Origin: Escherichia coli O157:H7
Lineage (GTDB): Bacteria > Pseudomonadota > Gammaproteobacteria > Enterobacterales > Enterobacteriaceae
NCBI RefSeq assembly: GCF_013167455.1
Contig: NZ_CP038328.1
Strand: one strand, 5' to 3'
DNA length: 64,000 bases
Of this stretch, positions 36,345-36,861 are shown piece by piece. The position numbers and the translations under genes were made by a program. How positions within the stretch are numbered: position 1 is the first letter of the stretch; each line of letters begins with the position of its first letter. Under the pieces are notes generated by a model. That model saw only the letters and a program-made list of their open reading frames with translations, had not been told where the DNA came from and searched no databases.

Positions 36345-36626
36345 TTACCAGTGACGGCGAGGTTCCATCAACTGATGAAGAATGCGCGCAATGAGAATGT
36401 CATCGACTCTTATAACGTAATAAACAGTGTGAAACCTAAATGCGATCTTCTTTACCTCTGGAATCGCATCATAGTCTTGCCCTATCTCGGGCATTTGAGA
36501 GAGTGTATCCAGAAAAGTGCCGAGAGAGTCGGTATAGCGATCCGCCTGCTCATCACCAAACTTTCCCAGCGTGTAGTCATAGATCCCTCTGAAATCTTCA
36601 ACAGCTTTTCCGCTAAGCTTATACAC
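36345..36626 (-). CDS. ParE/RelE-family type II toxin (about 93 aa from a GTG start; supplied ORF extends to 36659)
   Basis: Residues IVYKLSGKAVEDFRGIYDYTLGKFGDEQADRYTDSL...HTVYYVIRVDDILIARILHQ are typical of ParE toxins; a GTG at 36624..36626 lies 2 nt after the upstream antitoxin stop, whereas the longer ORF start would overlap it by 41 nt. Confidence 0.7.
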   Translation of the reverse strand: MYKLSGKAVEDFRGIYDYTLGKFGDEQADRYTDSLGTFLDTLSQMPEIGQDYDAIPEVKKIAFRFHTVYYVIRVDDILIARILHQLMEPRRHW

Positions 36627-36861
36627 GATGTTTTTGCTTCCTTTCTGCTGCGATATCACGAAGCGTCATCGAACTTTCACCGCTCTCAAGACCTTCAATA
36701 ACAGCATTTCTGACAGCTTCATCCCTGGATTCTTGTTGTTCCAATAGACGAAGTGCCGAACGCATTACTTCACTGGCCGAGCCATAACGACCAGACTGGA
36801 CCATCCGGGTAATAAAACTATCTAATTGTTCGCCAACGCTTACTGAGGTAATTTTGCGCAT
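36619..36861 (-). CDS. ParD-type ribbon-helix-helix antitoxin, 80 aa
   Basis: MRKITSVSVGEQLDSFITRMVQSGRYGSASEVMRSALRLLEQQESRDEAVRNA... is ParD/CC2985-like; sits directly upstream of the ParE-like ORF in the usual antitoxin-first order. Confidence 0.7.
   Translation of the reverse strand: MRKITSVSVGEQLDSFITRMVQSGRYGSASEVMRSALRLLEQQESRDEAVRNAVIEGLESGESSMTLRDIAAERKQKHRV

Follow-up and report, generated by a model that had tools for sequence, protein, structure and literature searches.

A two-gene ParD/ParE-type toxin-antitoxin module in the secF-yajD spacer of Escherichia coli O157:H7

What is the pair of short open reading frames (ORFs) that separates yajD from secF in Escherichia coli O157:H7, and does it encode a working toxin-antitoxin module? 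We analyzed this locus in a stretch of 64,000 nucleotides (nt) of contig NZ_CP038328.1 (assembly GCF_013167455.1), hereafter the window, starting from an original prediction that proposed a ParD/ParE-type module at this site. The identification of the two products as a ParD antitoxin and a ParE toxin is, on sequence comparison, near certain. We consider it highly likely that the genes form a canonical two-gene type II parDE operon of the type of Caulobacter ParDE1, Vibrio cholerae ParDE2 and Mycobacterium tuberculosis (Mtb) ParDE1, and not of the RK2 ParD type. That this ParE is active as a gyrase poison neutralized by ParD is likely, given its relatives.

The upstream ORF had been read as an antitoxin of 80 amino acids of the ribbon-helix-helix (RHH) kind, and it proved to be a ParD of the CC2985 type. 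The protein matched Pfam ParD_antitoxin (PF03693) with E=1.9e-22 over residues 1-64 (model positions 1-64 of 81) and NCBIfam TIGR02606 with 95.7 bits (E=1.2e-27; curated cut-off 46.2 bits). Its match to Pfam RHH_1 was weak. Among the sequences of the PDB, it matched V. cholerae ParD2 (VcParD2; E=2.9e-19 over residues 1-69) and Caulobacter ParD1 (E=1.9e-13), and further M. tuberculosis ParD1 and a PrpA-type ParD. The alignments with VcParD2 and Caulobacter ParD1 begin at residue 1, with conservation of K3, T5, S6 and the GRYGSASEV helix. The antitoxin is homologous to ParD chains that have been solved in complex with ParE (7R5A, 3KXE, 8C24 and 7YCS). These similarities place it among proteins with an N-terminal RHH DNA-binding domain.

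The downstream ORF, proposed to encode a toxin of the ParE/RelE fold, matched Pfam ParE_toxin (PF05016) with E=1.2e-14, the match starting at residue 2 of the shorter form described below (residue 13 in the numbering of the long ORF). The profile searches suggested with the original prediction thus assigned both proteins to toxin-antitoxin families, as proposed, and on these Pfam matches a chance origin of both ORFs is excluded. PF05016 and the RefSeq name 'RelE/ParE family' span both RelE and ParE, and we therefore tested the branch of the toxin explicitly. A ParE family profile was built from 31 family members and searched against the PDB sequences. The best matches were Mtb ParE1 (E=5.8e-24), PrpT (E=2.5e-21), Caulobacter ParE1 (E=7.9e-21) and V. 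cholerae ParE2 (VcParE2; E=6.4e-17), followed by other ParE toxins. RelE, YoeB, HigB and YafQ were not among the matches at E values up to 10.

The predicted structure gave the same answer. In the AlphaFold2 model of ParE (predicted local distance difference test score 94.7), two long N-terminal helices (residues 6-23 and 25-44) are followed by three strands (residues 58-63, 66-72 and 77-84), as in solved ParE toxins. A Foldseek search of the PDB returned as its first 23 matches only ParE-type toxins or ParE-fold toxins of ParD-type modules (PrpT, PfiT), with template modeling (TM) scores of 0.67-0.90. PrpT, Mtb ParE1, Caulobacter ParE1 and VcParE2 were closest (TM 0.85-0.90, root-mean-square deviation 1.1-1.8 Å), and RelE, YoeB, HigB and YafQ scored 0.47-0.69. 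The model accordingly has the N-terminal alpha-hairpin on a three-stranded antiparallel sheet that is expected of ParE, and the sequence matches place the toxin in the ParE branch and not in the RelE, YoeB, HigB or YafQ branches.

Both ORFs are on the minus strand, parD running from the ATG at 36861 to the TAA at 36621..36619. The mechanical ORF list gave a toxin ORF of 104 residues (36345..36659), which starts from a GTG at 36659 and does overlap the parD ORF by 41 nt, as had been stated. We rejected this longer form: the Pfam and PDB alignments begin only at its residues 12-15, homologues start at M-YKL, and RefSeq has the 93-residue form from the GTG at 36626. A collection of 15 billion proteins contained no copy of the 104-residue sequence. 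In contrast, the M/V-Y-K-L N-termini of all 30 aligned homologues (93-100 residues) coincide with the GTG at 36626. Comparative evidence indicates that this GTG is the right start, because of the 30 homologue N-termini, the AAGGAAG sequence 10 nt upstream and the same 8-nt overlap in plasmid homologues. The original prediction had selected the same codon (36624..36626), a choice upheld by RefSeq and the homologues. It had also placed the codon 2 nt after the antitoxin stop, and this part was wrong. Because both genes read towards lower coordinates, the in-frame GTG comes before the parD stop, giving an overlap of 8 nt between the genes; within this overlap, 2 nt separate the parE start codon from the parD stop codon.

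RefSeq annotates the same arrangement, with a toxin gene of 282 nt, an antitoxin gene of 243 nt, an overlap of 8 nt and the product names 'type II toxin-antitoxin system ParD family antitoxin' and 'RelE/ParE family toxin'. The locus thus shows the architecture of a type II toxin-antitoxin system: two small co-directional genes, antitoxin first, with overlapping frames and with a Shine-Dalgarno sequence and a palindrome upstream. The overlap is an arrangement that would allow translational coupling of parE to parD.

The palindrome upstream of parD is identical across the four diverged alleles that we compared. In V. cholerae ParD2, Lys, Thr and Ser residues of the N-terminal ribbon recognize GGTA/GTA[C/T] motifs (PMC10776004). 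The O157 ParD keeps these ribbon residues as K3, T5 and S6, and GTAT/ATAC form the ends of the palindrome. By analogy, we propose the palindrome as the putative ParD operator.

From the characterized relatives we infer how the module would work. ParD would dimerize through its N-terminal RHH domain and repress the parDE promoter, while its disordered C-terminal part would wrap around ParE and neutralize the toxin; parE would be translated by coupling to parD. Upon loss of ParD to proteolysis, free ParE would poison DNA gyrase, and the resulting DNA breaks would cause SOS induction and growth arrest or death.

The module was said to lie between yajD and secF and to be missing from K-12, and we found both to be the case. 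secF (37013..37984 as annotated, minus strand) is upstream of the pair on the same strand and stops at 37013; yajD (35910..36257, minus strand) is downstream and starts at 36257. The yajD-secF spacer of 755 nt is 100% identical to E. coli O157:H7 chromosomes. In K-12 MG1655, secF and yajD are adjacent, with a spacer of 128 nt and no such genes. Alignment of the window with MG1655 showed identity from yajD through 66 nt of the spacer (to 36323), resuming one base before the secF stop. At the junctions of the insert we found no target-site duplications or terminal repeats beyond 8-10-mers at chance level, and the annotation showed no mobile-element genes in its context. The neighbors are core housekeeping genes (yajC-secDF, yajD and tsx), with no defense island or mobile element.

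To follow the distribution across strains, as had been suggested, we used a sample of 5,426 complete E. coli genomes. The conserved 66-nt part of the spacer was matched in 5,403 of them and the insert in 426 (~8%), of which 424 hold most of the insert. In genomes without the module, the match was confined to the first 66 nt of the spacer. All 428 insert matches were chromosomal and none was on a plasmid. Identity to the window was at least 99% in 312 (mostly O157:H7) and 95-99% in 114, and both genes were annotated under the insert match in 59 of 60 sampled rows. The module was present throughout the sampled O157:H7 genomes, and about a hundred further complete E. coli genomes also carry it. 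We inspected the annotated carrier loci of three diverged alleles, one 100%-identical O157:H7 genome and strain E105, which is disrupted by an insertion sequence of the IS3 family. In all six carrier loci inspected, these among them, the module lay between yajD and secF, and in RefSeq both genes were intact except in the one strain with IS3 in parD.

We then compared four diverged alleles, which differ by up to 4% at the DNA level. ParD had 7 synonymous and no non-synonymous sites, leaving the protein identical, and ParE had 5 synonymous and 2 non-synonymous sites (D25E and T37I relative to the O157 form). Most of the DNA divergence was in the non-coding part near the terminator. In this small sample, the substitution pattern fits purifying selection on both proteins.

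Two of the three non-O157 carrier loci inspected also shared a truncated yajI (DUF3251). In L003 (1..932) and L004 (1..866), this gene is truncated by a degenerate IS200/IS605 tnpA together with a TnpB-like gene; the third locus, L006, ends before yajI. The truncated yajI could serve as a lineage marker for carriers of the L003/L004 type.

The insertion also exchanged the terminator of the secDF operon. The 62-nt segment of K-12 holds the native secF terminator hairpin, which is lost and replaced by the insert's own hairpin (RNA fold -32.8 kcal/mol, z -4.75). The built-in promoter/terminator scan, which covered 35800..37300, reported no terminators; RNA folding nonetheless gives a strong hairpin after secF. 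A second, small hairpin that follows it is the most variable part of the insert and is largely replaced in strain 980-2, where the ParD and ParE proteins are the same as in other non-O157 alleles despite this replacement. After parE (36258..36344, minus strand) there was no terminator-like fold (z -0.35), and therefore parDE transcription may read through into yajD, which encodes an HNH nuclease. A TTGACT hexamer (36325..36330, minus strand) is found just within the insert. The sequence preceding yajD may therefore have been changed relative to K-12.

Outside E. coli, plasmids carry the parDE pairs most similar to this one. Pairs with ~70% DNA identity were found on 59 plasmids of Citrobacter, Escherichia, Enterobacter, Serratia, Salmonella, Klebsiella and Yersinia, 11 of them Escherichia plasmids. 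The pair of the Salmonella MOBF plasmid pRM11060-2 shows 78% (ParD) and 63% (ParE) protein identity. The best ParE match outside E. coli (64%) is on small Salmonella contigs of ~5 kb with Rep_1 and TrbL genes, and in the E. coli IncX5 KPC plasmid pKPC-bca9 a related pair adjoins parA/parG. Chromosomal homologues were found in Erwinia, Xenorhabdus, Photorhabdus and Yersinia ruckeri; a search of 50,697 phage records gave no related sequence. To judge from these relatives, a plasmid origin of the E. coli module is the simplest reading, and an addiction module derived from a plasmid and fixed in some lineages is the most economical one.

How strongly does the evidence argue for an active toxin? 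The hot-spots of VcParE2 toxicity, F20, W25, Y33, H69 and H88 (bioRxiv 10.1101/2025.07.24.666505), align with Y18, F23, Y31, H66 and H84 of this ParE. Among the 31 family members, four of these residues are invariant and F23 is nearly so. The alignment is only suggestive of gyrase poisoning and toxicity. Several observations weigh against an active, canonical module. F23 stands where VcParE2 has an important Trp, and the W25F exchange lowered, though it did not abolish, VcParE2 toxicity (bioRxiv 10.1101/2025.07.24.666505). Some ParE toxins are weak, such as P. aeruginosa ParE1 (PMC6368863), and the ParE2 of O157 does not interact directly with GyrA. The candidate parDE promoter, found in a relaxed scan, has 8 of 12 consensus matches and is a weak, low-confidence candidate; the stricter built-in scan of 35800..37300 returned no promoter. 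None of the NCBIfam models matched the toxin, RelE-type models included, so that none names it. In E105 (NZ_CP071375.1, L005 2245..3458), the IS3-family element lies in the 3' end of parD, leaving a ParD of 76 residues and an intact parE that has lost its link to the parDE promoter and to translational coupling. The protein collection also includes a few truncated forms of ParE (P0008, P0024, P0031 and P0033). The IS3-disrupted allele and the truncated toxins indicate that the module is dispensable and sometimes decays. To this side also belongs that the parD(EDL933)-parE pair of the literature, discussed below, is likely, rather than certainly, this locus.

The leading alternative is an intact but attenuated or 'domesticated' module that persists as a neutral passenger, or a ParD that is kept as an anti-addiction factor against plasmid ParE. 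We regard this as unlikely. Attenuation would agree with a Phe at position 23, at which full toxicity of VcParE2 depends on Trp or Tyr, with the existence of weak ParE toxins such as that of P. aeruginosa, and with the disrupted and truncated alleles on record. However, PrpT, a validated toxin, also has a Phe at this position in the alignment, and ParD and ParE have remained nearly unchanged while synonymous sites vary, which is unexpected for a neutral remnant. Anti-addiction has been shown for other chromosomal modules (PMC7167474). The related pairs on Enterobacterales plasmids, including those of Escherichia and the IncX5 KPC plasmid, would provide targets, and with a plasmid ParD that is 78% identical to this one cross-neutralization is conceivable. 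Against it, the specificity of ParD/ParE pairs is usually high, and the Caulobacter and O157 ParE systems show no cross-talk (PMC3920263). A ParE that is neutralized by ParD and poisons gyrase remains our preferred reading of the locus.

E. coli O157:H7 carries SOS-inducible Shiga-toxin (Stx) prophages, and characterized ParE toxins damage DNA and raise the mutation frequency much like fluoroquinolones. Because of this combination, one may imagine that ParE released under stress switches on SOS and Stx-phage induction from within. Or else ParD might act as an anti-addiction factor against the related ParE of IncX or other plasmids. We consider this very unlikely, the presence of an apparently intact and conserved module being all that speaks for either idea. 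Should this ParE indeed be an active gyrase poison, turning it on might have consequences for SOS and prophage induction, which is speculation.

A main role in abortive-infection defense against phages or in the stabilization of neighboring DNA is improbable as well. Some toxin-antitoxin systems do defend against phage or stabilize mobile DNA (PMC7167474), and V. cholerae ParE toxins stabilize chromosome II (PMC10776004). At this locus, however, the PADLOC models matched 0 families for either protein at E values up to 0.01, no related sequence was present among the phage records, and the neighbors are housekeeping genes and not a defense island or mobile element. Moreover, secDF is essential or nearly so and would be retained without any addiction module. 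Roles in persistence, phage defense or the stabilization of neighboring DNA, which had been raised for this pair, are unsupported here, and those of chromosomal type II modules are contested in the general literature (PMC6614396, PMC7167474). Finally, a RelE-like ribosome-dependent mRNA endonuclease in place of a gyrase poison is hardly credible: the Pfam family and RefSeq product name fail to separate RelE from ParE, and RelE and YoeB structures share the fold and appear in the Foldseek list at a probability of about 1, but the PDB sequence matches of the family profile are solely to ParE toxins at E values up to 10, the TM scores of the closest ParE toxins lie well above the RelE-type range, the model has the two long N-terminal helices of solved ParE toxins, the partner is a ParD-type antitoxin and no RelE-type NCBIfam model matched.

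The parDE pair is not new. It is already annotated, and its antitoxin has a UniRef representative, PARD_ECO57, with an identifier in the style of a gene name. Citing Hallez et al. 2010, Leplae et al. 2011 (PMC3141249) include 'parD(EDL933)-parE3' with the systems 'tested as proof of concept'. The present pair has very probably been tested experimentally already. Counting the Sakai tags from secD (ECs0459) and tsx (ECs0464), it should be ECs0461/ECs0462. In the open literature, we found no paper discussing the pair under the tags Z0508-Z0511 or ECs0459-ECs0464, and nothing on a toxin-antitoxin system at yajD/secF.

Beyond correct annotation, the significance of the locus is small, the module being an accessory element that varies between lineages. 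It illustrates cleanly how an addiction module of the plasmid type can lodge in a core-genome spacer and leave no visible mobile-element scars. The features of the locus are collected in Table 1.

Table 1. Features of the parDE locus and the surrounding insert (positions in the window).
Feature	Position	Strand	Description	Basis
parD	36619..36861	-	ATG start, 80 amino acids, ribbon-helix-helix antitoxin	RefSeq WP_001226938.1; UniRef representative PARD_ECO57
parE	36345..36626	-	GTG start, 93 amino acids, ParE-family toxin	RefSeq WP_000277484.1
parD/parE overlap	36619..36626	-	8 nt, GTGTATAA	direct sequence reading
Shine-Dalgarno-like AAGGAAG	36637..36643	-	10 nt upstream of parE GTG, within parD	putative, from sequence reading
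Shine-Dalgarno GGAG	36869..36872	-	7 nt upstream of parD ATG	sequence reading
Palindrome GTATTAA-N3-TTAATAC	36875..36891	.	putative ParD operator; perfect, 17 nt; overlaps predicted -10/+1 region	
Third ATAC	36895..36898	.	near palindrome 36875..36891	
Candidate sigma-70 parDE promoter	36894..36923	-	-35 TTGGTT 36918..36923, 18-nt spacer, -10 TATACT 36894..36899	
Inserted segment	36324..37012	.	689 nt replacing 62 nt of the K-12 yajD-secF spacer	alignment with K-12
secF intrinsic terminator within insert	36954..36989	-	16-pair stem, 3' arm into nine-U tract	inverted repeat I2
Second small hairpin	36935..36953	-	just after secF terminator; GCCUGUUUCACAGGC	inverted repeat I19 and RNA fold

Several other genes of the window were recorded in passing. 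Between pgpA and yajO is espY3 (~28009..29580, plus strand), which specifies a type III secretion effector with pentapeptide repeats; we take this position to be outside the K-12 gene order. Between ppnP and rdgC (~60002..62733, minus strand), the gene for a DUF2773-domain protein (2,280 nt) overlaps that for the next protein, of the 'SF0329 family', by 4 nt; the two are an accessory pair. A 'hypothetical protein' of 481 residues is encoded between malZ and acpH (~43172..44617, minus strand). clpP, clpX and lon (~3823..8388, minus strand) are about 28-33 kb from parDE. The proteases that they encode usually degrade type II antitoxins. Their order is presumably the ordinary one of K-12, and the proximity to parDE would then be coincidence. 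The small RNA sraA (Rfam RF02029, 106.7 bits) is located between clpX and lon on the opposite strand (6249..6344, plus strand).

How does the O157 module compare with known systems? The parDE pairs of Enterobacterales plasmids (pRM11060-2, the small Rep_1 replicons and pKPC-bca9) have the same 8-nt overlap and the same gene lengths, and that of the Salmonella plasmid has AT-rich palindromes upstream of parD, as at the O157 locus. The plasmid pairs adjoin partition or replication genes, fitting a function in plasmid addiction, whereas the O157 pair was chromosomal in 428 of 428 matches. The IncI plasmid system ParDE-I (PMC6614396) was considered as a relative and rejected, being ~15% identical to Caulobacter ParE1 and thus a distant branch.

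Among systems of known structure, V. cholerae ParD2/ParE2 (7R5A, 7B22), Caulobacter crescentus ParD1/ParE1 (3KXE) and M. tuberculosis ParDE1 (8C24) have the same antitoxin-first order. Their antitoxins and the O157 ParD share the PF03693 ribbon-helix-helix N-terminus. VcParE2, C. crescentus ParE1 and Mtb ParE1 have the fold predicted for this ParE (TM 0.85-0.88), at an identity of just 28-32%, and share with it the IYDYT and RILHQxM motifs and most of the VcParE2 hot-spot residues. This ParE differs from that toxin group in having Phe instead of Trp in the alpha1-alpha2 loop. For the O157 locus we propose one AT-rich palindrome, bounded by GTAT/ATAC, as the operator, whereas the V. cholerae system has three GGTA boxes. 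Moreover, the O157 pair sits in a core-genome spacer, in contrast to the superintegron or genomic island of relatives of the V. cholerae, Caulobacter and Mtb type.

The PaaR2-PaaA2-ParE2 system (5CW7/5CZE) is found in the same host, and its toxin has the same ParE fold (TM ~0.80), with an identity of 18-19%. The PaaA2 antitoxin has no DNA-binding domain and requires the separate regulator PaaR2 (PMC3920263, PMC8630535). That system thus consists of three components and resides in a cryptic prophage, whereas the present parDE consists of two genes in a core spacer. With RK2 ParD/ParE, the founding system, the module shares the concept of a gyrase-poisoning ParE that is paired with an antitoxin of the RHH kind. 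In the classification of Leplae et al. 2011 (PMC3141249), ParD(EDL933) belongs to the PasA superfamily and is kept separate from the ParD of RK2. It is on this basis that the present ParD, which matches PF03693, is set apart from RK2 ParD.

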